From Candidatus Paceibacter sp. (GTDB lineage: Bacteria; Patescibacteriota; Patescibacteriia; S139-126), in contig DYGA01000002.1 in assembly GCA_020724865.1 (NCBI GenBank), positions 12,032 to 76,031 on the forward strand: a stretch of 64,000 nt of DNA, read 5' to 3'. Below, one piece after another: positions 9,812 to 63,497 of the stretch. A model generated the notes under the pieces. That model saw only the letters and a program-made list of their open reading frames with translations. It was not told the DNA's origin and made no database searches. Positions within the stretch are counted from its first letter, which is position 1. Each line of letters opens with the position of its first letter. Both the position numbers and the translations under genes were made by a program.

Positions 9812-9830
9812 ATGTTCTGAAACATGTTTC

Positions 9831-11688: not shown

Positions 11689-11703
11689 TAAATAAAATAA
11701 AAG

Positions 11704-11913
11704 ATGACAAAATTAATAGTCAAAGGCATGCATTGTTCTGCTTGCCAGAGTTTAATAAAAATGGAGCTTGAAGAAAAAGGTTTGCCAGTCCAAGAAGTAA
11801 AATTACTTGCCGGAGATAGGGGCGAGGTTGAATTTGCAGATTTAAATGAAGAACAAATAAATTTAGCTAAAAAAACTATTGAAAAAATGGACAATTATTC
11901 TGTCATTTCTTAA
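11704..11913 (+). CDS. copZ: Copper chaperone, single HMA domain
   Basis: 69 aa with GMHCSACQ. Confidence 0.7.
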
Positions 11914-11924
11914 ATATAAAAAAT

Positions 11925-24103: not shown

Positions 24104-24958
24104 ATGAAAAAAATATTGTTTTCTTTAGTTATAGCCGTTTTGGTAGGAGGATTATTTACTCCTAGTGTCAAGGCTTACAGTGATACTAAAGGCAAGGTCC
24201 TTTTGCAAGTTGAGGATAAAGGTCAACTTTGGTATATCGCCAATGACGGCAAATCTAAGTTTTATTTAGGTTCGCCAGTTGATATGTTTCGCCTGATGCG
24301 TTTTCAGGGTGTGGGTATTTCCAATAGCGATTTAGCTAAAATTCCTGAAGCTGGTAAATCGCAGATGGGTGATAAAAATTTTGCCAATCTGCAAAAAGGT
24401 AAAATTTTATTACAGGTAGAGCAAAATGGTGAAGCCTGGTACGTTCATCCGCAAACCGGTGAAAGACATTATTTAGGCACACCTCAAGCAGCGTTTAATC
24501 TGTTTAAATCAATTGCAAGTGGCGCCAGTAATGCTCATTTGAGTAAAATACCTGAAGTTAAAGATATTACCTTGACCGCAATTAATGCCAAATCTTTTAA
24601 TACTTTGGTAGCAGCTCTTAGTGCCGCTGGATTGGCAGATGTTTTGCAAAATAGCGGACCATTTACAGTTTTTGCTCCCACTGATGAAGCTTTTGCTAAA
24701 TTACCAGCTGGTACGGTAGAATCTTTGCTAAATGATATTGATCAATTGACTAAAATATTAACTTACCATGTTGTTCCCGGTAAAGTATTAGCTAAGGATG
24801 TAGTTAAATTAAATTCGGCCCCAACAGTTAATGGTAAAAATATTAGTATTCAAGTTGATAATGGAAAAGTTTTGATTGATAATGCCAAAGTCACAGTAAC
24901 TGATATTATGGCTACCAATGGTGTAATTCATATTATAGATAGCGTTCTTCTACCGTAG
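24104..24958 (+). CDS. Secreted protein with two ~55-aa N-terminal repeats and a C-terminal fasciclin (FAS1) domain
   Basis: Signal peptide. Repeats KGKVLLQVEDKGQLWYI.../KGKILLQVEQNGEAWYV... FAS1 hallmarks TVFAPTDEAF...HVV...VIHIIDSVLLP. Confidence 0.75.
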   Translation: MKKILFSLVIAVLVGGLFTPSVKAYSDTKGKVLLQVEDKGQLWYIANDGKSKFYLGSPVDMFRLMRFQGVGISNSDLAKIPEAGKSQMGDKNFANLQKGKILLQVEQNGEAWYVHPQTGERHYLGTPQAAFNLFKSIASGASNAHLSKIPEVKDITLTAINAKSFNTLVAALSAAGLADVLQNSGPFTVFAPTDEAFAKLPAGTVESLLNDIDQLTKILTYHVVPGKVLAKDVVKLNSAPTVNGKNISIQVDNGKVLIDNAKVTVTDIMATNGVIHIIDSVLLP

Positions 24959-30589: not shown

Positions 30590-31213
30590 ATGCAAAAGTG
30601 GTTAGAAAAAATTAGACAAGCTATGGGCAAGCAACCCATGTTTTGGCGTTGGCTGGGAATTTTATTGATATTTTTTGGTTTAGTTATTATTTGGCGGGCA
30701 CAAATGCCAATTAGTAGTCCGACTGATTATGAAAATTATGGAGAACTTAATATTTTACCTTCAGGTGAGGAAATGGATTTAACTCCAGTGGATTTGTCTG
30801 GTATAGATCTGACTAGTAAGAATGGTAATTGGATTGTGATTCCTAAAATGGGAGTGGATAGCGCGATTTTTGAAGGAGGGGAAGAAATGCTCAATCAAGG
30901 TGTGTGGCATTTGCCCAGAACTTCAACACCAGATCAAGGTGGTAATACTGTCTTGTCAGCTCATCGTTGGTTATATAAACCGCCGGATCCCAGGACTTTT
31001 TGGAATATTGACAAAATAGAGGTTGGTGATGAAGTGTATGTTAAATGGCAAGATAAAGAATATACTTATCGGGTAATATCTACTGAAGTGGTGACGCCGG
31101 ATCGGGTGGATATTTTGCGTCCGACTAAAGAACCAATTTTAACTTTTTTTTCTTGCACGCCACTTTATTCAACTTCGCATCGGTTGGTAGTAAAAGCGGA
31201 ACTGGTTGAATAA
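30590..31213 (+). CDS. Sortase-family transpeptidase with an N-terminal TM anchor
   Basis: Catalytic triad context: LSAHR (His), TFFSCTP (the Cys of the TLxTC motif), and a C-terminal Arg (RLVVKAELV). Confidence 0.75.
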   Translation: MQKWLEKIRQAMGKQPMFWRWLGILLIFFGLVIIWRAQMPISSPTDYENYGELNILPSGEEMDLTPVDLSGIDLTSKNGNWIVIPKMGVDSAIFEGGEEMLNQGVWHLPRTSTPDQGGNTVLSAHRWLYKPPDPRTFWNIDKIEVGDEVYVKWQDKEYTYRVISTEVVTPDRVDILRPTKEPILTFFSCTPLYSTSHRLVVKAELVE

Positions 31214-32728: not shown

Positions 32729-33490
32729 ATGGGTAAGATTATAGCACTGGTCAATCAAAAAGGTGGCGTAGGTAAAACCACGACATCAGTAAACCTCGCT
32801 GCTTATTTAGCATTATTTGGTAAAAGAGTTTTGTTGGTTGATATTGATCCTCAAGGCAATGCTTCTTCGGGTTTGGGGATTGTTTTGCGAGAATTTGATG
32901 AACATATTTATCATGCTTTGGTGATACCGGAAAAATTTCCCAAGATTATTAGGAATACCAATATGGATAGTTTGCACGTGGCACCTGCAAACAGCAGCTT
33001 AGCTGGAGCTGCGGTGGAGTTGGTAAATTTTCCCCAACGGGAATATCGATTGCGACAGTTATTAGTTGAAGCTAAAGATAAATACGATTATATAATTATT
33101 GATAGTCCACCTTCACTTGGATTGTTGACCATCAATGGTTTAGTAGCGGCTGATCAAGTGCTGATTCCAGTTCAGGCAGAGTATTATGCTTTAGAAGGAT
33201 TAGGACAACTATTAAAGACTATAAATTTAGTCCAAGCACACTTGCATCCCGAGTTGCAGATTTTGGGAGCAGTTATTACTATGTATGATAGACGCAATCG
33301 TTTATCAGCAGCCGTAATGAATGAGTTGTATCAGTATTTCCCTAAGCGTATTTTTAAATCAGTTATACCACGGAGTGTGAGATTGGCAGAAGCACCATCA
33401 CATGGTATGCCAATTTTACTTTATGATAAAAATTCAACAGGTAGTCGGGCATATCAAGATTTAGCCCAAGAAATATTAAACATCACTTAA
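32729..33490 (+). CDS. parA: ParA/Soj chromosome-partitioning ATPase
   Basis: Deviant Walker A KGGVGKTT; ParA family throughout. Confidence 0.9.
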   Translation: MGKIIALVNQKGGVGKTTTSVNLAAYLALFGKRVLLVDIDPQGNASSGLGIVLREFDEHIYHALVIPEKFPKIIRNTNMDSLHVAPANSSLAGAAVELVNFPQREYRLRQLLVEAKDKYDYIIIDSPPSLGLLTINGLVAADQVLIPVQAEYYALEGLGQLLKTINLVQAHLHPELQILGAVITMYDRRNRLSAAVMNELYQYFPKRIFKSVIPRSVRLAEAPSHGMPILLYDKNSTGSRAYQDLAQEILNIT

Positions 33491-33492
33491 TT

Positions 33493-34407
33493 ATGGCAAA
33501 AAAATTTAGTTTAGGTAGAGGCTTAGGTTCGCTTATTCCTGATGGTAAAAATGAAGAATTTGAGCAACCTATGACTGTTGATGGAATAGATGATTTGGTA
33601 TCAACGCCAATTGAAGTTGATAGTCCTTTAGCTCACCAACAAAAAATTGAATATATTGATCCAAAAAAAATAGTCACTTCACATTATCAACCGCGTCAGT
33701 TATTTGAAAATACTGCTTTGGAAGAATTGGTCAACTCTATCAAAGAGTTTGGTATTTTGGAGCCGTTGATTGTTTCGCCTCTGAGCGGAGGTGCTTATAA
33801 GTTGGTAGCTGGGGAAAGAAGATTACGAGCAGCTAAAATTCTAGGTCTTAAAAGTGTACCGGTTATTATCCGTACTGTTTCCGAACAACAACGATTGGAA
33901 ATATCTTTGATTGAAAATGTACAGAGACGTGATTTAACACCTTTGGAAGAGGCAAACGCATATAAAAAATTGATTGAAGAGTTTAATATTACTCAAGATG
34001 AATTGGCAAAAAAAGTTGGCAAATCCAGATCAAAAATTGCCAACTCTTTACGACTTTTAAATTTACCCGCTGAAGTGCAAGCTTTGCTTGGTAGCGGTCG
34101 TATCACCGAAGGCCATGCAAAAGTTATTTTGGAATTAGCCACGCCGCAGGAACAGATAATTATGGCTAGGCGAGTTGCGGAACAGAATATGTCGGTTAGG
34201 GATGTGGAGAAAAAAGTAGCAATTCGCAAAAGAAAAAACAAACCAGCCGTTGAATTAAATGAAAAGTTGCAAATATTGCAAGACGAATTAAGAAGAATAT
34301 TCAAAACTAAGGTTTACATAAAGCCTAAAAAACAGGGCGGGTTGATTGAGATAGAGTATTATTCTGATGAAGAACTGAACAATTTAATTGACCGATTGGG
34401 GATATAA
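33493..34407 (+). CDS. parB: ParB/Spo0J partition protein
   Basis: ParB box GERRLRAA, HTH, C-terminal dimerisation region. Confidence 0.9.
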   Translation: MAKKFSLGRGLGSLIPDGKNEEFEQPMTVDGIDDLVSTPIEVDSPLAHQQKIEYIDPKKIVTSHYQPRQLFENTALEELVNSIKEFGILEPLIVSPLSGGAYKLVAGERRLRAAKILGLKSVPVIIRTVSEQQRLEISLIENVQRRDLTPLEEANAYKKLIEEFNITQDELAKKVGKSRSKIANSLRLLNLPAEVQALLGSGRITEGHAKVILELATPQEQIIMARRVAEQNMSVRDVEKKVAIRKRKNKPAVELNEKLQILQDELRRIFKTKVYIKPKKQGGLIEIEYYSDEELNNLIDRLGI

Positions 34408-49182: not shown

Positions 49183-49259
<77 letters not shown>

Positions 49260-49349
49260 GTATTAAATTTAAATAAGAACAATTTTGACCATAATTTATT
49301 TAGCCAGTTAACAAAAATTATCAATATTATTGATAAAATATTAAAATTT

Positions 49350-49946
49350 ATGATAAACGACAAAGAGTTAAACAACGTTGCAAATAAACAGAAAGTCAAA
49401 GAATTTATTTTGGAAATAATTAGAATTATTGTTATTTCTGTAGCTATTATCGTGCCAGTTCGTTATTATTTGATTCAACCCTTTTATGTTAAAGGAGCCA
49501 GTATGGAGCCGAATTTTCATGATCATGAGTATTTATTGATTGATGAAATCTCGTATCGTTTTCGAGAGCCAATGCGGGGGGAAATAGTAGTTTTTAAATT
49601 TCCTTTAAATACCAAGGAATTTTTTATTAAAAGGATAATTGGCTTACCTGGAGAGACGGTTGCTTTGCGAGACGGCAAGGTTTATATATATAATAATGAA
49701 AATCCAGAAGGATTTTTGTTGGATGAATCAAAATATTTGCCACCAGATGTTAAAACTCTGCCTATGGGTGAAAGTACATTTACTTTAGGGCGTGATGAAT
49801 ATTTTTTAATGGGTGATAATCGTGCCCGGAGTATGGATTCGCGCCAATTTGGCAGTGTTAAATCTGATTTAATTGTCGGTCGGACAATAATTCGTGGTTA
49901 TCCTTTTGATCGTTGGCAGACTTTTTTTACCACTTCTTTATATTAA
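49350..49946 (+). CDS. lepB: Signal peptidase I. The ORF-track start at 49224 overlaps tRNA-Val, so the start is more likely the Met at 49350.
   Basis: Catalytic Ser motif GASMEPNF; GDNRARSMDSR box. Confidence 0.8.
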   Translation: MINDKELNNVANKQKVKEFILEIIRIIVISVAIIVPVRYYLIQPFYVKGASMEPNFHDHEYLLIDEISYRFREPMRGEIVVFKFPLNTKEFFIKRIIGLPGETVALRDGKVYIYNNENPEGFLLDESKYLPPDVKTLPMGESTFTLGRDEYFLMGDNRARSMDSRQFGSVKSDLIVGRTIIRGYPFDRWQTFFTTSLY

Positions 49947-51320: not shown

Positions 51321-51414
51321 TGATTTTAGTTTGACAAATACCGGTAAAAAGTGTTATACTTAAAATAATTAATTAATTTAAAAAATAATTCTTTAGAAAG
51401 GAAGGTGTATTTAT

Positions 51415-51672
51415 CTGGTAGAGGTAAAAAGAAAAGAAAATGAATCTTTTGATCAATTTTTACGAAGGTTTACCAAGAAAAATAGAGATTCAGGCGTCTT
51501 GCTAGAAGCAAAAAAATTACGCTGGCACGAAAGAAAAAAAAATAAGCGGCAAAAAAAAGAATCTGCTTTACGCAAGATGAAAATTAATGAAAAAAAAGAA
51601 TGGCTTAAACGAATTGGTAAATTAGACGATTATACTGACAGCTTTGGTCGTGTAAAAATTAAAATAAAATAA
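51415..51672 (+). CDS. rpsU: 30S ribosomal protein S21, absent from the ORF track. No in-frame ATG/GTG/TTG start; the most plausible start is CTG at 51415 (9 nt after RBS aaaggaagg), or ATT at 51409.
   Basis: Translation ...VEVKRKENESFDQFLRRFTKKNRDSGVLLEAKKLRWHERKKNKRQKKESALRK... matches the S21 consensus (MPxIKVRENESFD.ALRRFKR...G). Confidence 0.6.
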   Translation: MVEVKRKENESFDQFLRRFTKKNRDSGVLLEAKKLRWHERKKNKRQKKESALRKMKINEKKEWLKRIGKLDDYTDSFGRVKIKIK

Positions 51673-51674: not shown

Positions 51675-52127
51675 ATGAATTTATCAAGCCAGTTGGAGCA
51701 AGATTTAAAAGACGCTTTAAAACAAGGTGATAAAGAAAAAGCGTTGACTTTGCGTATGTTGAAAGCTGGTTTGGTTAATGAACAGATAGCACAAAAAAAA
51801 GATAAAAATAGTTCTATTGCAGATGATGTATTCCTAGCAGTTTTAAAAAGAGAAGTAAAAAAAAGAAAAGAAGCTTTAGTCAGTTATGAGCAGGCAGGAA
51901 GAAAGGATTTGGCTGATAAAGAAAAAGCCGAACTTGATATCTTATTAAAATATTTACCAGCTCAGCTATCGGTTGAAGAGATTGCCAAGATAGTTGATGA
52001 TGTATTAGCTAATCTATCTGCGGGTGAAAAAAATATTGGTCAGGTAATGAAGCAAGTTTTAGCCAAAGTTGGTTCGCAAGCTGATGGTAAAACTGTTTCC
52101 GATATAGTTAAAAAGAAATTAGTTTAA
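51675..52127 (+). CDS. yqeY: GatB/YqeY-domain protein
   Basis: 150 aa; YqeY-like helical protein with a conserved N-terminus (L..DLK.A.K..D). Confidence 0.7.
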   Translation: MNLSSQLEQDLKDALKQGDKEKALTLRMLKAGLVNEQIAQKKDKNSSIADDVFLAVLKREVKKRKEALVSYEQAGRKDLADKEKAELDILLKYLPAQLSVEEIAKIVDDVLANLSAGEKNIGQVMKQVLAKVGSQADGKTVSDIVKKKLV

Positions 52128-52136: not shown

Positions 52137-55100
52137 ATGCAATTATTTTCTTTTCCGCAAAGCAGAATTTCGGAAAAACATTGTGCTTTTCCTGTTTTTG
52201 GTTCTCATTTTTTTAAATCATTTATAAATAATTTTCTAGCTACAATTATTTTGGGAGCTATTTTTTTTGTTCCTACTTTGGTTTCAGCGCAGGGTGTTGA
52301 TTTCGGATTGGGTTATGGCAGCGCAATTGGTTTGGGTACACAGGATATTAGGGAAACTGTAGCCAGAATTATCAAGATTGCTTTGGGGATTTTGGGCATT
52401 ATTGTTACTTTGATAATTATTTATGGTGGTTATGTTTGGATGACCGCGGGTGGTAGTGAACAAAAAGTTAGCTTAGCCAAAAAAATATTAATCAATGGGG
52501 TAATCGGTTTGGTTATTATTATTTTAGCTTACGCTTTGACAGTTTGGATTTTTAGAATAATTATTGGTGGTACGACTGGTGGCGGGAGTGGCAGTTGTGT
52601 TGAAGGTCAAATTAGCGGCTGTACCCGCTGTGTGGGCGGCACCTGGATATATGATGGGAGTATTCCTGGTTGTGTCTTGCCCGGAGCAGATTTTCGGGTG
52701 AAAAATATTCAAACAACTCACGGAGGAAATAACCCCGCTCAAGATGTTTATTTGTGTTCCCGGATACAATCAAATTTTAGCAATCGTATTGCTGCTCAAT
52801 CAGTAGCCGATGCTTTAAATGCTAATCAATTGAGAATTGATACCTTTGCTGGTAATTGGCAGGTGACCAGTAATGTTTTAACTTTCAAACATGATGATAA
52901 TTTATTTTCCATAAATACTGCCTATAGATTATTACTGCCTCGACAAGGTAATACCACACCATTGTTTGATCAAAACAACTTAAATTTAACCCAATGTGAT
53001 CCAATTGTGGGTTGTGCCAGTACTTTGGAGCATTTTACTTGGGATTTTGTTACTGGAGAAGATAATGATGATGTTGCTCCTGAAATAACCAATACTTATC
53101 CAGTATCTGATATAACCAGTCCAACTTATCCTGATCGTAATGTATCTCGTTCGCCAATAATGGAGGTAAATTTTTCGGAAAGTATTGATGCTACTTCAGT
53201 GGCTGATAGTAACGGTAATCCATTGGCTGGAGTAATAACTTTGGAGCGATTAAGCGATCGGGGAGGTAGCGTTGATTTAACTATACCTAACAATCAATTG
53301 GAAGTATATTTTACTAGCAATGGTTTTCGTTTTAATTTAATTGAACCAAATTTACTCGATAGTTTCCGTTGGTATCGAATTACTGTCCAAGGCGTAGAAG
53401 ATTTATGTGGTAATCAAATGGCTGCGCCCAGAGTCTGGGAGTTTCAAACCAATGACAGTTCCCCAGGGGTAAGAACTTGGTATCCTACCGGGACCAATCA
53501 GTGTTTGGATGTTGATGTAATTGTTGGTTTTAATAGTTCAATGTTTGATCAACAAGTTACTTTTGTTATTTCTGGCAGTGACGGCAGTGTTTATAGCGCC
53601 ACAATGAGACCATCCTTATTGGAACCAGGACCTTATCAGGTAGCTGGCAGCGGTGGTAGCTTATCCGTAGCTGATCCGGGGCAACCTTATAGTAACAATT
53701 TTAAATCTTTTGTTTTTAGAGCAAATAATGGTTGGCGCGCTAATACCACTTATTCTGTGACAATAACTACTGATTTAGTGATTAATACCAATGGTGATAC
53801 TTTGTCACATAATTGGAATTTTAGCACCTCGGATGCTGCTAGTTGTGTTTGTTCACCTTATATAATGTCGATTAATCCTAATCAGGGAATGGCCGGTCAG
53901 TGTGTGACGGTTCAAGGTAGATGTTTTACTGGTACTTCAGCTAAACCAGCTGAAATTACGAATGTATCAATTAATGGTCAAACTGTAACCGTTGGTGGTT
54001 CTGATAGTAATTATTTTACTACCAGCATTCCTGACAATTTACCAGTCGGCACGCAAGCGCCGGTGGTTGCCACTATTACTTATCAAGATCCAGAATTGGG
54101 GAGTATTACCAGTAATAACAATGTTAATTATTATGTTAATCAACCGGGTATATATAATGGTCCTTGCTTATGGTCAATAGTGCCATCACTTGGTTGCGCT
54201 GATACTAGTGTTACTTTAAATGGTATTAGATTTGGTACTGATCCGGGTAATTATCAAACTGATCAAAATAATGTAACTTTCAATTTAAACCGCAGAGCTA
54301 GGCAGTCAGATTTTAGTTTGTGGTCAGACACTTCAATTCGTACCCGGGTGCCTCAGGCAACAGTAGATGGTAATGTTTATGTAACTGCCAATAGTTTAGT
54401 AACCAATGGCGTGCCTTTTGATATGTCTTGTGGATCAGGAGGTGCCTGTTCGGCCGATCCTAATATTTGTAGTCCTAACCCCACCAGTTGCGCTGTTGGT
54501 TACGAATGTAATACTAGTTGTATTTGCCAAGCAGTAGGTGGGAGCGTAGGCGACCCTTGTTCTTCAGATCCCAATAGTTGTGTGCCAGACGATACTTTAT
54601 GTTCGAGTTCTTTGTTTTGTGATCCTAATAGTTGTACTTGTCAATCAAATGGTGAAACCACAACTCGATTTAACGTGATTGCTAATTGGCCGACTTGTGA
54701 AGGTGTGTGTGTAAATTCTGAAGTGGGTTTAAGATTTTCTACCAGCGTTGATCCGACTACTGTTACCAATGCCAATATTGCCATATTTGATTATCGGGAT
54801 AGTGGTTACACCCAAATGGTAGGCGAAGAACAAATTACTGTTTTCCTTAATTCTAGCACTAATGAAGTTTATATTTATCCCAACGGTGGTTTGTCTCGTG
54901 GTTATTATATGAGAGTGGTAGTTAGAAATGGAATTTTAAGTAGTAGCGGACAAACAATCCAGAATTTAAATTTTGATGAAGACGGTAACGGGGTAAATGA
55001 TAGTTATGCTTGGACCTTTAGTGCCGGTAACGAGACTTGTACTTTGACGGCAATAGAAAATAGTCCTGTCCTGATGACTTTCAATAACATCAACCAAAAT

Positions 55101-58100
55101 CAAACTATTTATGGCAGGGCTATATCCAGTCAGCAGTGCGGACCAAATCAATATGTCAATCCTTGGGATCATGATTGGAAATGGGAAGATACAAATAATG
55201 GCAATATTGCCAAAGTTACCAATCGAGATATAAATAATGATAATAAATATGATCCCGCTCAAACTGTTACTTCAATTGCAGCAGGCACTACGCAAATAAG
55301 AAGTGAAGTTGATAGTAATTTAACAGCTTTAAGTGATGTTATTGTTGGCAGTGGTAGTAGTGGTGTGGGGACAGTTTGCGATGCCGATCCAAATACTCCA
55401 CAGTGTGATCTAAATAATAACATCTGTGGCAATTTTGGTTTAGTCTGTGATCCTAATGCTAATTGTACCTGTCAGCAAGCAGGTTACACGCCTTTGACTC
55501 CCGGTGTGGTTAGTGTAATTCCTATTAATAATCAGACTGATGTTTGTCGTAATAGTATAGTTCAAGTCACTTTTAATCAAAAAATGGATACCGGTTCTAT
55601 TGTTTGGCAGTCCACATTCAAGATCAATGACAATGACCGTGATGATGTGAGAGGAAATTTGAATTTTATTACGGTCAACAATGGTGTCTATGGCTGTAAC
55701 AATCCTCAAGGTTGTACAGTGGTTAGATTTTATCCATCGCGAGCTTATGTTCAAAACAGTCTACACACGATAACACTGACTACTGGGATTAAAAATTTAT
55801 CCGGATTGTCACTACCTGCCAATTTTGTATCTAGTTTTACGACTGGTAGTCAGATTTGCAAAGTCAATACTGTTGACCTGCAGCCAAATTATCATTTATT
55901 TACCACTTTAAATGAGAGTGTAGTATATATGGCTACCGCTAAAGATTTACGCGGTGGTTTAGTAGCGCCAATCCCCGGTTTTTATGATTGGAATTGGCAG
56001 TGGGTCAAAGCTGATGATGATAATGTGGTCAATATGGAGGATGTTGGTAATCCTGACCGGAGAAATATTGTTGCCCAATCTAGTAATGGCCTAGCCAGAA
56101 TTAAAGCCACAGCAGAAATTACTACGGCTGATGTTTCAATTGGTGATAGTGTTGGCAGAAAAATTAGCGATAGTAGCGAGGCGGAAGTATTTATTTGCAT
56201 ATATCCTTGGCCAGCCACACCACCGATGCAGGATTCACAGTATGGTTTTCAAATGAAATATTGTCGCGGCAATGATAGCGCTAATTTGTTGGGTATGTTG
56301 TCAGATCCGACTAATTCTATTATTTCTCTTACCACTTCTGATCCAGATTTAGAAAGAGAATATTTATTTAATTATCTGGTTTCTTCTTTGCCCGTGGGCG
56401 GACAAACAGAACCATTTATTATCAGTAAATTACAAAGGTTTAAAATTGGTCAGTTATTAGTTTTATGGTGGAAAAACTTATTAGCTATGTTCAATAAACA
56501 GTCAGTTTGGGCACAGGTACCCCAAGATGTGATTGGATTGCGGATTTATAATAATCCTAATCGCTTGGGTCCGAGAGCTTGGTATGAACAAAAATCATTC
56601 CCCAAGGGTAATCCGCAAGATATTACTGTTGATGGATTTCCCGCCATAAAGGATGGTACTTCAGTTTATATACTTGGCCCTCGACGCGCGGGTTCAATTG
56701 AAACTTATATTTATGTTTTGTCTTACAATGATTTATCCAGTCAGAATAATATTGCCATTTTTAATCAGTTAATAAAAAATTTCCGTTTTTATACTTTAAC
56801 GCCGGAAGAAAAACCAGCCGTTGCAAGGGATTTAAAAAGATTGGCTGATGCCAGTTTTATAGCGACGCAATTAGAACGTTATAAAAATCGAACTGGAAAT
56901 TATCCAGCTTTGTCCGCGGGAAGTTATATTGCCGGCATGTCAACCAGTAAATGGCCTTCTTGGCAGGCTACTTTAGGAAACCAATTAGGTGTAAGTATTC
57001 CCAATGATCCAATTAATAAATTTGCCAGTTATTGCTCTAATAATCCCAATCAAAGTTGTTGGCAAAATAGTGATTGTGGCACTGGACAGTGTTTATCAGG
57101 TTGTGGCGAAGAGGCAAATCCTGATACCTGTTGGAACGAAGTGACTCAAGAATATTCTTGTCCGGCTGGTTCAGCAGTTTATCAGTACCGACGTTATGGG
57201 ACTAATGATTTTCGTATTGGTGTATTATTGGAAGTAAATGATTATGAAGCTTTGCCAACTTATTTAGATGTAAATGAAGCTTATTGTAATGGTACTATTT
57301 ATACTGGCGATGGTTTTTGCGGTGATGGCATAGTTCAAGCATCTTTAGGGGAGCAGTGTGAAGTAGGGCAACAAATTTTAGCCTGCAATCCTACTTGGCC
57401 CAATTATTACAATCCTATTTATCAGCAATGTGAATCAGATTGTAGTTGGCCTGATGCTCAAGTATCTACTTGTGGCGGTTATTGTGGTGATGGTGTATTA
57501 CAGTCAAGTAATGAAATTTGTGATGGCACTGCCGGTCTGGGAGGAGTAGGGCCAGCCACTTGTTATACTGATTGCAGTGGTTTTTATTGTAATCCCGGTT
57601 ATGTTTTAGTAGGCGGTGTTTGTCAGCTTGATTGGTGCAATCCTGCTACTCAGGATTGTTCTAGTCAAATACCCAATGGCAATGGTCAATATCAATCTTG
57701 TAATTATGTCAGTGGTAATTGGCAGTGGTCAGATTGTCAGGTAACCAGTTGTAACCCCGGTTATGTGATTAGTGGAAATAGTTGTGTTTTACCTCAACCC
57801 ACAGTAACTATAACTAGCCCAGCTAACAATACTAACGGCGGCAGTAGTGTTACTATGACTTTTGTAGTAAATCAAGGTGGGGTATACAACGTGCTGCGTG
57901 ACGGAGTGATTGTTTATACCACCGGTGTCAATGCCGGAACTTATACTTACAATTTTACTGGACTAACTGCTGGACCTCATGTTTTAGGAGTATCTATTAC
58001 CAATGCCAATGGCACTGGTAATGCGCAAATAAACTATACTGTTAATCCACCACCTCAACCCACAGTAACTATAACTAGCCCAGCTAACAATACTAACGGC

Positions 58101-60164
58101 GGCAGTAGTGTTACTATGACTTTTGTAGTAAATCAAGGTGGGGTATACAACGTGCTGCGTGACGGAGTGATTGTTTATACCACCGGTGTCAATGCCGGAA
58201 CTTATACTTACAATTTTACTGGACTAACTGCTGGACCTCATGTTTTAGGAGTATCTATTACCAATGCCAATGGCACTGGTAATGCGCAAATAAACTATAC
58301 TGTTAATCCACCACCTCAACCCACAGTTACTATTACTAACCCTACTAATGGTAGTACTGGCACTAGCACTGTTTTTCTAACCTTTAATATTAGTCAAAGT
58401 GGAGTATATACCATTTCGCGCAACGGCTCACTTGTTTATACTAGTGGCAACGTAGCAACTGGTAGTCATACTTATGTTTTGGGGGGATTGTCACCCGGAC
58501 CACATATTTTAGGTGTATCTATTACCAATGCCAATGGTACGGGTAATGCTCAAGTTATTTACAATGTTAATCCACCCCCGCCAGATCCGCCGACCGTTAC
58601 TATAAACAGTCCTGCCAATAATACCACGGGTGGTAGTAGCGTGACTATGAATTTTACGATTAGTCAAAATGGTACTTATAATATTTTACGTAATGGGGTG
58701 GGTATTGCCACCAGCACTGTATCAGCCGGAACCTATACTTATACTTTCAACAATTTAACTAATGGTAATTATATTTTAGGAGTATCTATTACCAATGCCA
58801 ATGGCACTGGTAATGCGCAAATAAACTATACTGCCAATACACCTCCCCCTACCGTCACTATCAATAGTCCTGCTGATGGCGGCACTAGTAATTCTAGTAT
58901 TGTTGTTATGCAATATACAGTTAGTGCCGCAGTAACAGCTTCATTTTTTGTTGATGGTTCTTTGGTAGGTGGAACCAGTCATAGTAGTAGTGGCACATAC
59001 AGCTTTGATTTTACTGGTCTTACTAATGGTACTCATATATTACAGGTCAATGTTAGTAATTCTTATGGGAATGCTAGTGCTCAAATTACTTACAATATAA
59101 GTGTGCCGCCGGTTGTTACTATTTTAAGTCCGGTTAACAATAGTAGTGGTGGTAGTAGCGTGGTAATGCAATTTAATATTAGCCAGGCTGGAACTTATAG
59201 ATTATTTTTGGATGCCACACCAGTATTTACTACCACTGCTAACGCTGGAACTTATACGTATAATTATACTGGTTTAACCACCGGTAGTCATGTCTTGCGA
59301 GTAGAATTATCAAACAGTTATGGTAATGATAGTGATCAAGTAACATATAATAAGATAGCAGAAATACCAGCTGCTCCGTCGGGATTAACTGCTGTTGCCA
59401 GTGGTAATAATATAACTTTAAATTGGACAGATAATTCTAACAATGAAACAAATTTTGTAATTGATCGGGCAGTTGGTAGTCCAACATCTTGGACGATTGG
59501 GTATACTATGGTTGGTGCCAATGTTACCACCTTCCAAGATACTGGTTTATCAGATGATACATATTATTATCGAATTCGAGCAGAAAATGTTGATGGTTTT
59601 AGTGCTTACTCCAATACAGCTAGTGCCGTAGTGTTATCACAAGCTACCATTTTTGTTTCCAGTCTTTCAACGCAGGGCAATGTGGGTGCTGGTTATATAG
59701 AAAATGTTGATCAATTTTGCCAAAACTTAGCTAATGCTTCAAGTTTAGTCAGACCTGGACAATGGCGGGCTTGGATTTCAGGTTTGTCAATGTCAGGGAT
59801 CAATATAAACGCAAAAGGACATTTTACTGGCTATCAATCTGTCCCATTATATAATAAAAGTAGTTCAAATATGTTTTTAGTCGCTAGTAATGTGTCAGCA
59901 TTATGGACCACTGGAATTCAAGCAAATGTTTTGTATGATGAAAATGGGATTAGTAGGCCGACTGATATCTATACTGGTACTTATAGTGATGGCTCAGCTT
60001 CTGGTATAAATTGTAATAATTGGTCAAATAATACTTGGTATTATGGTGGAGGAGTTGGCGTAAATGATTATTATCCTATTGCAGGTCTTCCTCTTTGGAC
60101 TAATTCTCATCAACTTAGTTGTAATATGAACGCAAATATTTATTGTATTTGGTATAGACCATAA
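52137..60164 (+). CDS. Giant (2675 aa) cell-surface protein. Layout: N-terminal signal-like segment plus two hydrophobic helices (membrane hairpin), long Cys/Asn/Thr/Gly-rich region with clustered Cys knots, six ~87-aa Ig-like tandem repeats, an FN3 domain, and a C-terminal Cys-containing globular (lectin-like?) domain.
   Basis: Continuous ORF. Repeats QPTVTITSPANNTNGGSSVTM...GVSITNANGTGNAQINYTVNPPP x6 (two identical at the DNA level). FN3-like APSGLTAVASGNNITLNWTDNSNNETNFVIDRA...YYYRIRAENVDGFS. Confidence 0.7.
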   Translation: MQLFSFPQSRISEKHCAFPVFGSHFFKSFINNFLATIILGAIFFVPTLVSAQGVDFGLGYGSAIGLGTQDIRETVARIIKIALGILGIIVTLIIIYGGYVWMTAGGSEQKVSLAKKILINGVIGLVIIILAYALTVWIFRIIIGGTTGGGSGSCVEGQISGCTRCVGGTWIYDGSIPGCVLPGADFRVKNIQTTHGGNNPAQDVYLCSRIQSNFSNRIAAQSVADALNANQLRIDTFAGNWQVTSNVLTFKHDDNLFSINTAYRLLLPRQGNTTPLFDQNNLNLTQCDPIVGCASTLEHFTWDFVTGEDNDDVAPEITNTYPVSDITSPTYPDRNVSRSPIMEVNFSESIDATSVADSNGNPLAGVITLERLSDRGGSVDLTIPNNQLEVYFTSNGFRFNLIEPNLLDSFRWYRITVQGVEDLCGNQMAAPRVWEFQTNDSSPGVRTWYPTGTNQCLDVDVIVGFNSSMFDQQVTFVISGSDGSVYSATMRPSLLEPGPYQVAGSGGSLSVADPGQPYSNNFKSFVFRANNGWRANTTYSVTITTDLVINTNGDTLSHNWNFSTSDAASCVCSPYIMSINPNQGMAGQCVTVQGRCFTGTSAKPAEITNVSINGQTVTVGGSDSNYFTTSIPDNLPVGTQAPVVATITYQDPELGSITSNNNVNYYVNQPGIYNGPCLWSIVPSLGCADTSVTLNGIRFGTDPGNYQTDQNNVTFNLNRRARQSDFSLWSDTSIRTRVPQATVDGNVYVTANSLVTNGVPFDMSCGSGGACSADPNICSPNPTSCAVGYECNTSCICQAVGGSVGDPCSSDPNSCVPDDTLCSSSLFCDPNSCTCQSNGETTTRFNVIANWPTCEGVCVNSEVGLRFSTSVDPTTVTNANIAIFDYRDSGYTQMVGEEQITVFLNSSTNEVYIYPNGGLSRGYYMRVVVRNGILSSSGQTIQNLNFDEDGNGVNDSYAWTFSAGNETCTLTAIENSPVLMTFNNINQNQTIYGRAISSQQCGPNQYVNPWDHDWKWEDTNNGNIAKVTNRDINNDNKYDPAQTVTSIAAGTTQIRSEVDSNLTALSDVIVGSGSSGVGTVCDADPNTPQCDLNNNICGNFGLVCDPNANCTCQQAGYTPLTPGVVSVIPINNQTDVCRNSIVQVTFNQKMDTGSIVWQSTFKINDNDRDDVRGNLNFITVNNGVYGCNNPQGCTVVRFYPSRAYVQNSLHTITLTTGIKNLSGLSLPANFVSSFTTGSQICKVNTVDLQPNYHLFTTLNESVVYMATAKDLRGGLVAPIPGFYDWNWQWVKADDDNVVNMEDVGNPDRRNIVAQSSNGLARIKATAEITTADVSIGDSVGRKISDSSEAEVFICIYPWPATPPMQDSQYGFQMKYCRGNDSANLLGMLSDPTNSIISLTTSDPDLEREYLFNYLVSSLPVGGQTEPFIISKLQRFKIGQLLVLWWKNLLAMFNKQSVWAQVPQDVIGLRIYNNPNRLGPRAWYEQKSFPKGNPQDITVDGFPAIKDGTSVYILGPRRAGSIETYIYVLSYNDLSSQNNIAIFNQLIKNFRFYTLTPEEKPAVARDLKRLADASFIATQLERYKNRTGNYPALSAGSYIAGMSTSKWPSWQATLGNQLGVSIPNDPINKFASYCSNNPNQSCWQNSDCGTGQCLSGCGEEANPDTCWNEVTQEYSCPAGSAVYQYRRYGTNDFRIGVLLEVNDYEALPTYLDVNEAYCNGTIYTGDGFCGDGIVQASLGEQCEVGQQILACNPTWPNYYNPIYQQCESDCSWPDAQVSTCGGYCGDGVLQSSNEICDGTAGLGGVGPATCYTDCSGFYCNPGYVLVGGVCQLDWCNPATQDCSSQIPNGNGQYQSCNYVSGNWQWSDCQVTSCNPGYVISGNSCVLPQPTVTITSPANNTNGGSSVTMTFVVNQGGVYNVLRDGVIVYTTGVNAGTYTYNFTGLTAGPHVLGVSITNANGTGNAQINYTVNPPPQPTVTITSPANNTNGGSSVTMTFVVNQGGVYNVLRDGVIVYTTGVNAGTYTYNFTGLTAGPHVLGVSITNANGTGNAQINYTVNPPPQPTVTITNPTNGSTGTSTVFLTFNISQSGVYTISRNGSLVYTSGNVATGSHTYVLGGLSPGPHILGVSITNANGTGNAQVIYNVNPPPPDPPTVTINSPANNTTGGSSVTMNFTISQNGTYNILRNGVGIATSTVSAGTYTYTFNNLTNGNYILGVSITNANGTGNAQINYTANTPPPTVTINSPADGGTSNSSIVVMQYTVSAAVTASFFVDGSLVGGTSHSSSGTYSFDFTGLTNGTHILQVNVSNSYGNASAQITYNISVPPVVTILSPVNNSSGGSSVVMQFNISQAGTYRLFLDATPVFTTTANAGTYTYNYTGLTTGSHVLRVELSNSYGNDSDQVTYNKIAEIPAAPSGLTAVASGNNITLNWTDNSNNETNFVIDRAVGSPTSWTIGYTMVGANVTTFQDTGLSDDTYYYRIRAENVDGFSAYSNTASAVVLSQATIFVSSLSTQGNVGAGYIENVDQFCQNLANASSLVRPGQWRAWISGLSMSGININAKGHFTGYQSVPLYNKSSSNMFLVASNVSALWTTGIQANVLYDENGISRPTDIYTGTYSDGSASGINCNNWSNNTWYYGGGVGVNDYYPIAGLPLWTNSHQLSCNMNANIYCIWYRP
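57792..58313. repeat. Perfect in-frame tandem duplication, 2 x 261 bp (57792-58052 and 58053-58313), encoding two identical 87-aa Ig-like repeats inside the giant gene
   Basis: Base-by-base comparison; identity continues ~14 nt into the third, diverged repeat. Confidence 0.85.
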
Positions 60165-60169
60165 AATAT

Positions 60170-60661
60170 ATGGAAGAAATTAATCAAAAAGTAAAAGAAT
60201 TTAAAGAAAAAAGAAAAATTAAATTTCTAATTATTTTATTGTTAGTTTTAATTGTTGTAACCGCTGGAATAATATATTTTTTTTGGAACAATGAAATAAA
60301 GTTGGCGATGCGTGGTCGGGATGGCAAACAAGTAGATTTAACCATTGGTAATAAAGAGGTTATAGATGCCACGCTTGATTCTGATGGCGACGGGTTGACT
60401 GATGTTATAGAAAATCGTCTAGGCACTGATAAAAATAAGACTGACTCTGATAATGATGGTATTATTGATGGCGAAGAATTGATGGGTTGGGGGACTAATC
60501 CTCTCAAATTAGATAGTGATAATGATGGGTTGTCTGATTATAATGAAGTTAAAGCTTATGGTACTGATCCGCTAAAACCAGATAGTGATGAGGATGGTTT
60601 TGCTGACGGTTGGGAAGTTTTTAATAATTTTAACCCCAAAGGAAAAGGAAAGTTAGAATAA
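60170..60661 (+). CDS. Membrane-anchored protein with thrombospondin type-3-like Ca-binding repeats (DxDxDGxxDxxE)
   Basis: N-terminal TM; DSDGDGLTDVIE, DSDNDGIIDGEE, DSDNDGLSDYNE, DSDEDGFADGWE. Confidence 0.65.
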   Translation: MEEINQKVKEFKEKRKIKFLIILLLVLIVVTAGIIYFFWNNEIKLAMRGRDGKQVDLTIGNKEVIDATLDSDGDGLTDVIENRLGTDKNKTDSDNDGIIDGEELMGWGTNPLKLDSDNDGLSDYNEVKAYGTDPLKPDSDEDGFADGWEVFNNFNPKGKGKLE

Positions 60662-60712
60662 TTATAATTTTTTTTGTATAATAATATTATAATAAAATAT
60701 TATTGATATCTT

Positions 60713-61354
60713 ATGTTTGATGATATAAAAAATAATAGCCAAATTATGAATGATAATAGTTCTGATAAAAATGTTTCTAAGCCAGTGGAAGATATTTTTT
60801 CCGAAACAGAAAAAAACAATCCCACTCCTCAACTGCAGGAAATTTTAGATACAAATACTATGCCCGCTGCTTATCAGCCAACTAATAATATGTATGAATC
60901 GGGTAAGAATAAAAAAAATGTATTAAAGTTATTGTTACTAATTATTTTTGTTGCCATTGTGGGAATAGGTGGTTATATTGCTTATGGTATGTATCAAGAT
61001 AGTCAGGTTAAAAAAGTTTTAAATGAACCAGAAACATCTTCAGTTAACAACGATGAAAATTCTTCTAATACTAACTCCGATGTTACTATTATCTCAGGAA
61101 ATGTAGTTGATACTGACAATGACGGTTTATCAGATCAAGAAGAGTCTACCTTTGGTACTGATATAAATTTGCCCGATACAGATAGTGACAATTTATTTGA
61201 TCGGGAGGAAATAAAAATTTATGGAACCGATCCTTTGAATTCCGATACTGACGGTGATGGTTATCTTGATGGTGATGAGGTTAAAGCAGGTTATAATCCA
61301 TTGGGACCAGGCAGGTTATGGCCGGAAAATCCCAATCCAAATATTGAAGAATAA
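60713..61354 (+). CDS. Paralogous membrane-anchored TSP3-repeat protein
   Basis: TM helix; DTDNDGLSDQEE, DTDSDNLFDREE, DTDGDGYLDGDE. Confidence 0.65.
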   Translation: MFDDIKNNSQIMNDNSSDKNVSKPVEDIFSETEKNNPTPQLQEILDTNTMPAAYQPTNNMYESGKNKKNVLKLLLLIIFVAIVGIGGYIAYGMYQDSQVKKVLNEPETSSVNNDENSSNTNSDVTIISGNVVDTDNDGLSDQEESTFGTDINLPDTDSDNLFDREEIKIYGTDPLNSDTDGDGYLDGDEVKAGYNPLGPGRLWPENPNPNIEE

Positions 61355-61362
61355 ATATATTT

Positions 61363-62703
61363 ATGGTTTCAGAACAGAGTAATTTTGATCAATTCAATAG
61401 TTATGACCAAGCCCCGGCTATTTATACCATGCCAGAAAAATTTTTGCCTAAGCAAAAGAAACAAAAAAATAAATCTGGTAAAGGTATAATAATTTTTTTG
61501 TATTTTTTGATCGCTGTAGTTTTGATTGGAGCTGGTTTTGCTGTGTGGTTTTTATTTTTAAGACAGGAACCAGAAGTTATTGAACAGCCAAAAGTTATAC
61601 CCCAGGTAAATATAACCAATCCGACTAGTACACCAGCGGTGCAAGAGGAAATTACTCCGGTTGAAGTTAAATTTGTTGCGCGTGATGCACAGGGTAATGA
61701 GTTCTCCCACGTTTTGATCAAATTAACTGATGTTGATACTGAATTAGCAGAAAAAATCAAAGTAACATCATTATTGCCTGAACAAATGACTGGAAGAGCT
61801 AGTCGTGCCATTGGGGCTATTTATTTATTTACCATAGAAGACAGTAAAAATTTATCTCGCCCCACCACTTTTATTTTTTCTTATACAGAACCTGATGATT
61901 TAACAAGTAAAAAGGAGAACAGCTTGCAATTAGCAGAAGAAATATCACCCGGTACTTGGAAGTATTTGACCGGTAGTAAACTTGATATAGTAGCCAATAC
62001 TATAAGCATAGAACTATCGTCTTTCCCTCAAGGACAAGTAACTATTTTGTCGAATTTAGAAGAAGAAGAAAATTTTGATTTTTACAACCCTCTGTCCGAT
62101 GAACAACCACAAGATAATGACATTTTAGTAACAACTCCTTTAAGTTCAACTTTAGATTCTGACAACGATGGTTTAACTGATGTTGAAGAACAGCTTTATA
62201 AATCTAACCCATCTTTACCCGATACTGATGGAGATGGATTTTTAGATGGGCAGGAGGTAATTAATAAATATAGTCCAATTAGCGCTGATAGTTTATTAGC
62301 TGCTGGTTTAGTTAATGAATATAAAAATGATGATATGAAAATAAGTTTATTTTATCCATCTAGCTGGACAGTAAGAATTGGTAATGCGGAAACACAATCG
62401 GTTTCTTTCGAATCAAGTGGTGATGATTTTATTCAGATTTCTATTCAAGATAATCCTGATAATTTAGATGTTTATGCTTGGTATAGTAAATTGGCTCCCA
62501 ATATTGATCAAACCTTACTTGCTAAAACTACAATTGCTGGTTTAGACGCTATTTATTCTCCAGATATGGCCAACTTATATGTAGCGCAAAATAACAAAAT
62601 ATATATTTTGACCTATAGTGCTGGGTTAAAAACTCAAGTAGATTATTTGACTACTTTTGCAATGATGCAGGCCAGTTTAAACTTTTTAACAAATGGCAAT
62701 TAA
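61363..62703 (+). CDS. Larger paralogous membrane-anchored protein with TSP3-type repeats and N- and C-terminal globular domains
   Basis: TM helix; DSDNDGLTDVEE...DTDGDGFLDGQE. Confidence 0.6.
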   Translation: MVSEQSNFDQFNSYDQAPAIYTMPEKFLPKQKKQKNKSGKGIIIFLYFLIAVVLIGAGFAVWFLFLRQEPEVIEQPKVIPQVNITNPTSTPAVQEEITPVEVKFVARDAQGNEFSHVLIKLTDVDTELAEKIKVTSLLPEQMTGRASRAIGAIYLFTIEDSKNLSRPTTFIFSYTEPDDLTSKKENSLQLAEEISPGTWKYLTGSKLDIVANTISIELSSFPQGQVTILSNLEEEENFDFYNPLSDEQPQDNDILVTTPLSSTLDSDNDGLTDVEEQLYKSNPSLPDTDGDGFLDGQEVINKYSPISADSLLAAGLVNEYKNDDMKISLFYPSSWTVRIGNAETQSVSFESSGDDFIQISIQDNPDNLDVYAWYSKLAPNIDQTLLAKTTIAGLDAIYSPDMANLYVAQNNKIYILTYSAGLKTQVDYLTTFAMMQASLNFLTNGN

Positions 62704-63139
62704 AGTTTTTTTTTATTCTGCTAAGCCAAGCAGTATAAATAAAAAAATAGTAGATTTAGTAGTTAAGCAAACTATTAGTTTGGCTGTTGGCAAAAATTTA
62801 TCTTCAGAATTGTCAGTGGTTTTATTGCCGGATAGTTCGGTTAAAGTATTAAATAAAAAATATCGCCATATAGACAAACCTACAGATGTATTGTCTTTTC
62901 CGGGTAAAAGTGAAAAAATGCCCAATTTTGATAATTTTTTAGGGGAAATTGTAATTGCCAGAGGTGTTTGTCAAAAACAAGCCAAGATACATAAGCACAG
63001 TTTTAAAAAAGAGTTTATTATTCTCTTGATTCATGGCCTGCTTCATTTATTGGGTTACGATCACAAGAAAAATAAAGAAGCGATAATTATGGAAAGTTTA
63101 GAAGCAAAAATATTAAAAAAGGTGTATGAAGTTGTTTAG
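62693..63139 (+). CDS. ybeY: rRNA maturation endoribonuclease YbeY
   Basis: H..LHLLGYDH metal-binding motif (HGLLHLLGYDH). Confidence 0.85.
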   Translation: MAIKVFFYSAKPSSINKKIVDLVVKQTISLAVGKNLSSELSVVLLPDSSVKVLNKKYRHIDKPTDVLSFPGKSEKMPNFDNFLGEIVIARGVCQKQAKIHKHSFKKEFIILLIHGLLHLLGYDHKKNKEAIIMESLEAKILKKVYEVV

Positions 63140-63497
63140 TAATTTTTTGAGTAGTTTGCGCAATGCTTTAAGTGGCTGGCGTTATTTATTTGTCAGCCAA
63201 CAAAATTTTCGTATTCAAGTTTTTTTTGGTTTGATGGTTTTCATCACAGCTTGGCTACTAAAAGTCAAAAGACAGGATTGGTTAGTTTTATTATTATTAG
63301 TTACTATGGTTTTGGTGTTAGAAACTCTAAATACAGTTTTTGAATTTTTTTTAGATATGGTGAAGCCAAAAATAAATAGCTATGTAAAAATGTTTAAAGA
63401 TATGTTGGCAGCAATGGTTTTATTGGCTTCATTGGCAGCCGGAATTATTGGTATCATTATATTCTATCCTTACTTGAGAAATATATTTGTTCAATAA
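63126..63497 (+). CDS. dgkA: Diacylglycerol/undecaprenol kinase DgkA family
   Basis: Three TM helices; conserved E..N...E region (LETLNTVFEF). Confidence 0.75.
   Translation: MKLFSNFLSSLRNALSGWRYLFVSQQNFRIQVFFGLMVFITAWLLKVKRQDWLVLLLLVTMVLVLETLNTVFEFFLDMVKPKINSYVKMFKDMLAAMVLLASLAAGIIGIIIFYPYLRNIFVQ

Follow-up and report, generated by a model that had tools for sequence, protein, structure and literature searches.

A conserved gene cluster of Parcubacteria-type Patescibacteria encodes a putative fibrillar adhesin with a VirB2-like hairpin as its anchor

A giant protein gene and its partners in a housekeeping gene string

We analysed 64,000 nucleotides of the Candidatus Paceibacter sp. contig DYGA01000002.1 (assembly GCA_020724865.1, positions 12,032 to 76,031 of the forward strand; hereafter the window). 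Between the gene pairs rpsU-yqeY and ybeY-dgkA, we found one open reading frame (ORF) for a 2675-aa protein (52137-60164) and three smaller ORFs in 60170-62703. The 2675-aa protein (the giant) has a VirB2-like hairpin near its N-terminus, a long stalk of immunoglobulin-like (Ig-like) domains, a conserved core and a variable tip, while the smaller proteins (TSP-A, TSP-B and TSP-C) each have a membrane helix and TSP3 repeats. An earlier note on this DNA had described an 8-kb giant gene and three membrane-protein genes in this slot, and all four ORFs lie exactly where it had put them. We estimate a probability of roughly 55% that these proteins form a fibrillar adhesin complex that is anchored in the membrane and serves host contact. 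Such a complex would be a standard, vertically inherited feature of Parcubacteria-type bacteria encoded in a housekeeping operon. The adhesion or host-contact role suggested in that note thus stays the most plausible reading of the module.

A database search with the giant retrieved 151 homologs of 1500-4500 aa, nearly all of them with T4SS_pilin and Big_5 domains; the source records name them merely "Ig-like domain-containing protein" from Patescibacteria. We examined the surroundings of six homologs (81-35% identity) and 79 species-representative loci by phmmer annotation, and counted gene-order fractions over the loci with enough flank. The recurring order is (lepB)-hisS-(HIT)-rpsU-yqeY-giant-1-3 TSP-like-ybeY-dgkA-ftsA-ftsZ-nrdR. 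S21 or YqeY is encoded within 4.5 kb upstream of the giant in 47 of 63 loci, whereas a TSP-like gene (61/65), YbeY or DgkA (54/65) and FtsA or FtsZ (58/65) are found downstream. The named records with this locus belong to Falkow-, Uhr-, Kerfeld-, Komeili-, Buchanan- and Nomurabacteria, Parcubacteria and one Microgenomates-labelled genome. Between species, the length of the giant ranges from ~1400 to ~4000 aa in the loci examined. The recurrence of this gene order across lineages indicates that the module is ancestral and has been kept vertically in the rpsU...ftsZ neighbourhood. The arrangement is conserved across the ultrasmall Parcubacteria-type Patescibacteria, and the module is an old occupant of its slot.

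The comparison of this slot in relatives, which the earlier note had proposed as a check, therefore contradicts its view of the module as "inserted": the giant and TSP genes occupy the yqeY-ybeY slot across the relatives. A strain-variable accessory island in a conserved slot is now a hardly tenable explanation. The GC content of the giant gene (0.37-0.42) does slightly exceed that of its flanks (0.30-0.33), and protein length and tip do vary. However, the composition shift tracks the amino-acid content (N, G, T and S each account for ~10%), and the synonymous divergence (dS) along the giant matches that of the neighbouring genes when the window is compared with the L001 locus. The slot is filled by the same gene set in 79 species-level loci, no mobility genes are present, and no flanking repeats turned up, with no search aimed at them.

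Some loci depart from the usual arrangement. In many Falkow-, Uhr- and Komeilibacteria-type loci (L014, L016, L019, L042, L050 and L082; for example, L019:2654-4516), a second VirB2-like and Big_5-containing protein of ~620 aa is encoded between yqeY and the giant. Two giants are encoded one after the other in a genome of Kerfeldbacteria (L007:18035-25945). Many GTDB-representative metagenome-assembled genome records with the operon (L008-L010, L013, L019 and others) are titled "uncultured Gammaproteobacteria bacterium" and are apparently mislabelled. We disregarded these titles as deposit labels, because they conflict with the gene content and the Patescibacteria neighbours.

Predicted membrane anchor and proximal stalk of the giant

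The giant and the three TSP genes are all on the plus strand. The giant begins with a Sec-type signal peptide (aa 1-51; 52137-52289) that has a hydrophobic core at aa 33-51 and a predicted cleavage site VSA↓QG. It continues into a VirB2-like two-helix hairpin (aa 69-143; 52341-52565) with the basic loop SEQKVSLAKK, as recognised by the T4SS_pilin profile and by hydropathy. The T4SS_pilin profile (PF18895) matches aa 69-138 with 36.3 bits in the whole protein and 38.9 bits in the N-terminal piece (cut-off 26.6). The TrbC/VirB2 profile (PF04956) stays under its cut-off of 27.9 (16.9 bits, E 0.0076), and the hairpin also matches a pilin-like family of mycoplasma integrative and conjugative elements (E 1e-4). 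The signal peptide and pilin-like two-helix hairpin of the earlier note were confirmed in this way and can be assigned specifically to the VirB2/T4SS_pilin type.

Over the 2675 residues, hydropathy reveals just three hydrophobic segments (aa 33-51, 78-96 and 125-143), with no membrane segment after aa 143 and none at the C-terminus. As the hydrophobic segments are N-terminal only, the remaining ~2530 residues, with the 75 Cys of the giant, should lie outside the cell. No LPXTG motif, type I secretion system (T1SS) retention module or autotransporter barrel, which are the recognised anchors of fibrillar adhesins, was found in the giant; the N-terminal hairpin is its sole anchor.

The proximal stalk (aa 153-1239; 52593-55853) comprises four Big_5 Ig-like domains, beta-rich segments and Cys-rich linkers. 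Big_5 matches four stretches with 91 bits (about aa 311-438, aa 1122-1236 and others), and Cys clusters are found at aa 765-858 and 1081-1112. In total, the giant carries four Big_5 domains, six Big_7/TcfC repeats, a Big_2 fold and an FN3 fold, which bears out the description of a Cys-rich extracellular giant with Ig-like repeats and FN3.

The hairpin raises the question of a pilus. Known VirB2/TrbC-type pilins of type IV secretion systems (T4SS), including those in Patescibacteria arrays (PF18895; PMC12102498, PMC10633639), share with the giant the signal peptide, the two helices and the basic loop. In contrast to these pilins, the giant is ~20 times longer and lies outside a T4SS cluster, and its resemblance, known here from sequence alone, does not imply polymerisation. 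Stand-alone T4SS pilins are small (~100-150 aa) and encoded with virB4/virB6, unlike this 2675-aa protein. A survey of T4SS found pilin genes away from virB4 in 813 of 1948 Patescibacteria assemblies; it counts PF18895 matches, mentions no giant fusions, and sought PrgB-type adhesins without finding any (PMC12102498). The secreted proteins and transcripts with the highest expression in cultured Paceibacteria include ones that are annotated as T4SS pilins (PMC10936435).

It is worth asking whether the VirB2-like domain is a true pilin, serving as the tip or a minor subunit of a T4SS pilus encoded elsewhere, with the C-terminal part of the giant as the missing mating or host-contact adhesin. In the F- and T-pilus structures, VirB2/TraA-type pilins have both termini outward, so that a C-terminal fusion would be displayed. 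The PF18895 match above cut-off and the VirB2 layout of signal peptide and hairpin agree with such a role, as does the wide distribution of T4SS/VirB2-like pilins in Patescibacteria that lack a known PrgB-like adhesin (PMC12102498). Nevertheless, we consider this role unlikely. A scan of the ~45 largest ORFs in the window revealed no type IV pilus or T4SS machinery, and the home of the giant is fixed in a ribosomal and cell-division neighbourhood, never with T4SS genes in the loci examined. The co-varying partners are TSP3 proteins rather than VirB proteins, and an appendage of 2530 aa would block regular helical packing, except at the tip of a pilus.

A conserved core in the middle of the giant

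When the homologs were mapped on the giant, two regions, the hairpin and aa ~1200-1700, proved common to ~110 of 120 homologs among the matches listed. Only the five to ten closest homologs have the C-terminal 950 aa in common with the giant, and in the shortest family members the conserved middle region is the C-terminus. The hallmark of the family is therefore an unannotated core of ~480 aa in the middle of the protein, which the earlier note had overlooked. No Pfam family covers this core, though ~2000 protein clusters carry it: among 1.84 billion representatives, a core profile matched 2016 clusters at E<=1e-3, of which 1392 also reach E<=1e-30, and the matching proteins are almost without exception large. 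A 7-sequence core alignment was used for the genome locus scan, as the 26-sequence version had no sufficiently conserved stretch.

An AlphaFold2 (AF2) model of the core, made from 26 sequences, has a predicted local distance difference test score (pLDDT) of 87.4 and a predicted template modelling score of 0.82, and consists of three packed domains. The first (aa 1240-1352; 55854-56192) is a Big_2-type Ig-like domain. The second (aa 1353-1552; 56193-56792) is an alpha/beta domain that is probably PsbP/Mog1/LpqN-like. This second domain has a lineage-specific insert (SLPVGGQTEPFIISKLQRFKIGQLLVLWWKNLLAMFNKQ...) at aa ~1415-1462 (56380-56522), which is predicted, at low confidence, to be helical and is missing in distant relatives.

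The third domain (aa 1553-1700; 56793-57236) resembles the head of a type IV pilin or of the G protein of type II secretion systems (T2SS-G), without the hydrophobic N-terminal helix. Its motifs are RDxKRLxD...YP.L..GSY...STSKWPSWQ...LP.DP.N.F., and AF2 predicts a 29-residue helix followed by a beta-sheet with a pLDDT of about 90. T2SSG is its most recurrent weak Pfam match (11 of 52 orthologs, best E 0.001). In hhalign, the domain matches a profile of 34 Patescibacteria pilins over 72 columns (probability 74%, E 2.7e-5), with an alignment that begins exactly where the hydrophobic helix of the pilins ends, whereas matches to single pilins are weak (46% and 1.5%). A PDB profile search with this segment and two fold searches gave no pilin among the matches listed, and Foldseek of the core against PDB gave Ig-like matches only. 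The prepilin motif G↓F(T/S)LIE and the hydrophobic alpha1-N helix are absent from this domain; elsewhere in the window, the motif has only a chance match in hisS. From these profile and model data, a pilin-head-like domain is the probable assignment. Matches to merlin and MotY, which came up in PDB profile searches with the pilin-like segment, the tip and the single-sequence core, were rejected as chance-level.

A distal cassette with an exchangeable tip

Beyond the core, the giant of the window has a distal cassette of four parts. A Cys-rich region (aa 1701-1885; 57237-57791) with 20 Cys comes first. We had considered a DUF4215-type label for it because of its resemblance to a repeat of relatives, and dropped this label as there is no Pfam match at E<=1. 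Six Ig-like repeats of ~87 aa (Big_7/TcfC/Y_Y_Y; aa 1886-2420; 57792-59396) follow, for which a tandem repeat finder gives a period of 261 and Big_7 matches three stretches with 57 bits. Repeat units 1 and 2 (57792-58052 and 58053-58313) are 100% identical over 261 nt. The next part is an FN3 domain (aa 2421-2508; 59397-59660), with the seven-strand beta-sandwich fold of FN3 and a PF00041 score of 18.8 bits, under the cut-off of 25. An AF2 model of the C-terminal region, made from 7 sequences, includes the FN3 domain, while the part after it has a pLDDT of ~30.

This last part (aa 2509-2675; 59661-60164) is a DUF1554 domain (PF07588) with four conserved Cys, and is the fastest-evolving part of the giant. 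The match is borderline in the window, with 28.3 bits on the isolated C-terminal 171 aa (cut-off 27.5) and 24.2 bits inside a 266-aa piece. DUF1554 is matched in 7 of 9 relatives, with a best E of 2.8e-7. The C-terminal ~170 aa had been singled out earlier as a distinct domain, and a fast-evolving DUF1554 domain with two invariant Cys pairs fits that description. DUF1554 is presumably linked to the C-type lectin clan. A PDB profile search with the tip gave no meaningful match, and neither did a word-index search with the C-terminal 166 aa return any; the relatives of the tip came from earlier homolog hits and loci. Tandem duplication of the tip is seen at the C-terminus in L012 (4194-5243) and P0067 (aa 3680-4032).

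In other members of the family, the domains after the core include LamG, VWA, malectin, CBM4_9, sialidase-type, toxin-receptor-binding-type and disintegrin domains. The LamG, VWA, malectin, CBM4_9, sialidase-type and toxin-receptor-binding-type domains fit with glycan- or ligand-binding tips.

We found that variation is concentrated in this distal part. Between close strains, hardly anything changes in the first ~2200 aa of the giant or in the three TSP genes. The earlier note had expected the module to be "variable between strains", which is true only of its distal ~470 aa and of a single 87-aa repeat unit. In a JGI metagenome from the same population (flanks 99.5-99.97% identical), the giant has zero substitutions and exactly one 87-aa unit fewer. 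A second, independent pair of relatives (2681 versus 2594 aa) likewise differs by one unit. The one-unit difference is either real copy-number variation or an assembly collapse of the perfect 261-bp repeat.

Between the two members of this second pair, L008 and L087, dS is ~0.005 for aa 1-2200, 0.33 for aa 2201-2510 and 1.07 for aa 2511-2681 (DUF1554), while the genes downstream of the giant are 99.8% identical in nucleotide sequence. As the synonymous sites diverge too, the 3' end has been replaced by recombination, and local positive selection is not sufficient to explain the difference. For the ratio of nonsynonymous to synonymous divergence, we obtained 0.06-0.12 over the fibre and 0.26-0.31 for the tip; when the window is compared with its 81% ortholog, the two values are 0.06-0.12 and 0.26. 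The fibre apart from its tip is under strong purifying selection.

A swapped 3' end in near-identical strains is also what one would expect of a contact-dependent competition protein in the style of polymorphic toxins, namely a conserved filament with an exchangeable C-terminal effector, and a single family member (P0021) carries a pretoxin-HINT domain (PF07591) after the core. However, the tip in the window consists of FN3 and DUF1554 rather than a toxin domain. The giant is not followed by a small immunity-like gene; the next gene, after a gap of 5 nt, is TSP-A, whose nucleotide sequence is 99.8% conserved. A toxin function is thus very improbable.

TSP3-repeat membrane proteins

TSP-A (163 aa; 60170-60661) is predicted to be an N-in single-pass membrane protein and has four TSP3 repeats. 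Its paralog TSP-B (213 aa; 60713-61354) has a 72-aa predicted cytoplasmic tail, one transmembrane helix and three TSP3 repeats. TSP-C (446 aa; 61363-62703) is composed of a transmembrane helix at aa 42-60, a beta-rich domain, two TSP3 repeats and a C-terminal PsbP-like domain. Hydropathy shows a basic tail and, after it, a single N-proximal transmembrane helix in all three proteins. The TSP3_bac profile (PF18884; cut-off 25) scores 88.5, 51.4 and 36.3 bits in TSP-A, TSP-B and TSP-C, which contain 4, 3 and 2 DxDxDGxxDxxE motifs, respectively. The putative Ca-binding DxDxDG/TSP3 repeats noted earlier in these proteins are thus well recognised.

The three had also been called paralogs. This is true of TSP-A and TSP-B (34% identity over 152 aa, E 4e-22), whereas TSP-C (25% over 93 aa, E 7e-4) is related to them only in the TSP3 repeats and the N-terminal membrane-helix region. 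The C-terminal domain of TSP-C matches PsbP_2 in 12 of 23 orthologs (best E 2e-6), with E 0.037 for the copy in the window, and TSP-C matches the cyanobacterial PsbP structure 2xb3 with E 0.02. TSP-C is the most widely conserved partner and is always encoded directly upstream of ybeY.

Signals of a probable single transcription unit

The module lies within a compact string of genes on the plus strand. The upstream genes are rpsU (ribosomal protein S21; 51415-51672; PF01165, 33 bits, cut-off 27) and yqeY (51675-52127; PF09424, 141 bits), and the downstream genes are ybeY (62693-63139; YbeY profile, 125 bits) and dgkA (63126-63497; DAGK_prokar profile, 94 bits). The gaps between the giant, TSP-A, TSP-B and TSP-C are 5, 51 and 8 nt, in this order. 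The next two junctions are overlaps, of 11 nt between TSP-C and ybeY and of 14 nt between ybeY and dgkA. Upstream of rpsU, the hisS-rpsU spacer contains the best sigma-70-like match of the plus strand, TTGACA-18-TATACT with TG (51331-51360). It agrees with the consensus at 11 of 12 positions and, as a consensus match only, is a candidate operon promoter. Terminator-like sites on the plus strand between rpsU and dgkA do not exceed the chance level of shuffled sequence. As the genes are tight or overlapping, the best promoter match precedes rpsU and no internal terminator signal is seen, the rpsU-to-dgkA string is most likely one operon.

For rpsU itself, no in-frame ATG, GTG or TTG follows the ribosome-binding site. 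The S21 match begins at CTG 51415, with ATT 51409 before it, and the start is probably one of these two non-canonical codons.

Comparison with known surface structures

Fibrillar adhesins such as SasG/Aap, Bap, SiiE and the Mobiluncus giant adhesin (PMC10619420) resemble the giant in having a very long single-polypeptide stalk of Ig-like or FN3 domains, a distinct distal binding domain, copy-variable tandem repeats, an association with Ca2+ and variation centred on the tip. The giant differs from them in its anchor, which is an N-terminal VirB2-type hairpin rather than an LPXTG/sortase signal, a T1SS retention module or an autotransporter, and in its mid-chain conserved module of Big_2, PsbP-like and pilin-head-like domains. 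It is also encoded with dedicated TSP3 partners in a probable housekeeping operon, and is shared by many lineages of a major bacterial group, not strain-specific.

TSP3-type repeats on envelope proteins of adhesion complexes are known from the myxobacterial CglD (gliding adhesion complex) and MtsD (cell cohesion), whose families are the best NCBIfam matches of the three TSP proteins (46 bits against a cut-off of 400). Unlike CglD and MtsD, the TSP proteins are small, single-pass and without VWA, and the likeness is confined to the repeats. Leptospira surface lipoproteins share the Pfam family of the tip. In Leptospira, DUF1554 is found in small lipoproteins, while the giant and its relatives carry it at the very end of a long fibre, sometimes in duplicate.

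The Pam pili of Saccharimonadia and Microgenomatia are, like the giant, specific to the candidate phyla radiation (CPR), Sec-exported, Ig-like and disulfide-containing filaments with a presumed host-contact role (bioRxiv 10.64898/2026.03.03.709456). They are built from 39-55 kDa subunits polymerised by donor-strand exchange, with chaperone-like partners (bioRxiv 10.64898/2026.03.03.709456). Judged by the description in that paper, the system presented here is set apart by its single giant polypeptide, its VirB2-like anchor and its occurrence in other lineages. We therefore rejected identity with the Pam pili, which are a donor-strand-exchange polymer system of other classes.

Taken together, the module is best described as being of the fibrillar adhesin type, with a pilin-type anchor that is unusual, a head that is conserved but uncharacterised, and partners of its own. 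It is widespread in Parcubacteria-group Patescibacteria. In full-text literature searches of incomplete coverage, we came across no published account of the operon, the giant family with its VirB2-type anchor, or the conserved core.

A model for host contact

A possible mechanism can be proposed for the complex. The giant would be exported by Sec and its signal peptide removed; lepB is encoded upstream of hisS. The VirB2-type hairpin would hold the protein in the cytoplasmic membrane, so that its two ends face outward and the basic loop faces the cytoplasm. About 2530 residues would then extend outward, from a disulfide-stiffened Ig-like stalk through the three-part conserved head to a lineage-specific distal cassette, which in the window comprises the Cys-rich region, six Ig repeats, FN3 and DUF1554. 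The reach of the stalk may be very roughly 80-100 nm, as estimated from about 20 beta-sandwich domains. One to three single-pass TSP3 proteins would act as Ca2+-binding partners that stabilise the base of the fibre. The distal cassette with its DUF1554 tip would be the ligand-binding end, probably for a host-surface glycan, and specificity would shift through gain and loss of repeats and recombinational replacement of the tip. A constant anchor, stalk, head and set of partners combined with an exchangeable distal cassette is what would be expected of a fibre recognising a variable ligand, most simply the host envelope in the case of these epibiotic bacteria.

Several points weigh against this model. 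The giant gene is known here from its sequence alone, and the one-unit difference in repeat number could be an assembly collapse of the perfect 261-bp duplication. The pilin-head assignment of the third core domain rests on weak signals, and the lectin-like fold proposed for the DUF1554 tip falls where AF2 confidence is low. To our knowledge, a membrane hairpin anchoring a fibre of ~80-100 nm is unprecedented. Since a hairpin-anchored fibre of such length has no precedent, the hairpin may serve further purposes besides anchoring.

A structural role in the envelope would likewise be compatible with the universal conservation next to ftsA and ftsZ. The giant and the TSP3 proteins could then build a layer that resembles an S-layer or acts as a spacer, or could label the site of division, and bind no host at all. 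Ca2+-binding partners are typical of S-layers. The retention of the cluster in distant lineages, its place in a housekeeping string by ftsA/ftsZ and the strong promoter match before this string agree with such a scaffold as well. On the other hand, the Ig-like matches are generic, and the giant varies from ~1400 to 4000 aa between species. Tip recombination, relaxed constraint on the tip and the lectin- and VWA-type tips of relatives fit ligand recognition better than a lattice. We accordingly find an envelope scaffold improbable and prefer the host-contact adhesin.

A bolder form of the adhesin model, which we put forward tentatively and regard as doubtful in its full extent, is that the complex is the main host-contact organelle of Parcubacteria-type CPR bacteria. 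It would use a co-opted VirB2 hairpin as an anchor or polymerising base, an Ig-like fibre of 1400-4000 aa with the conserved head of Big_2, PsbP-like and type-IV-pilin-like domains, exchangeable lectin-type tips and Ca-binding TSP3 partners, and would be transcribed with ribosomal and cell-division genes. If this is true, pilin-anchored fibrillar adhesins would form a new class of surface appendages in bacteria, and a large group without a known attachment structure would have its host-contact organelle.

Attachment to the host has yet to be explained for most Patescibacteria; mechanistic work so far has dealt with the type IV pili of Saccharibacteria and with Pam pili. The present locus is a concrete, near-universal attachment candidate for Parcubacteria-group lineages, and can be found by synteny alone as the gene after yqeY. 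The conserved core would be suitable for antibodies, tags and structural work, and the variable tip may encode host range. An adhesin-like fibre fused to a VirB2-like domain exists in these bacteria, where the PrgB-type search of the T4SS survey found no adhesin.

Other features of the window

The lepB ORF as called mechanically (49224-49946) has a GTG start that is overlapped by tRNA-Val(cac) (49183-49259). As orthologous LepB proteins have 198-205 aa, translation of lepB probably begins around 49350. The parA-parB pair (32729-34407) lies some 18 kb upstream of the module. Their proximity suggests that the module may sit near the replication origin. Such a position would echo the origin-proximal placement reported for T4SS genes of Patescibacteria (PMC12102498).

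A metal/redox cluster (6795-14396) encodes an ArsP_1 permease, a thioredoxin-like and DsbD-like membrane protein with a CPHC motif (7938-9137), an HMA-DsbD_2 fusion and an HMA P-type ATPase. Farther along, at 19134-21635, is the gene for another cation P-type ATPase, of the Ca type. Genes for extracytoplasmic disulfide and Ca handling would suit a Ca-associated fibre with 75 Cys, a link that is putative.

A sortase gene (30590-31213) is located 21 kb upstream of the module, though the giant has no LPXTG motif. A fasciclin-domain protein (24104-24958) may be another surface protein. At the start of the window, a 933-aa soluble ORF (70-2871) without Pfam matches at E<=1e-5 precedes the gene for a membrane protein (2878-3582) in which a restriction-endonuclease-type domain and a C-terminal zinc ribbon can be discerned by eye.

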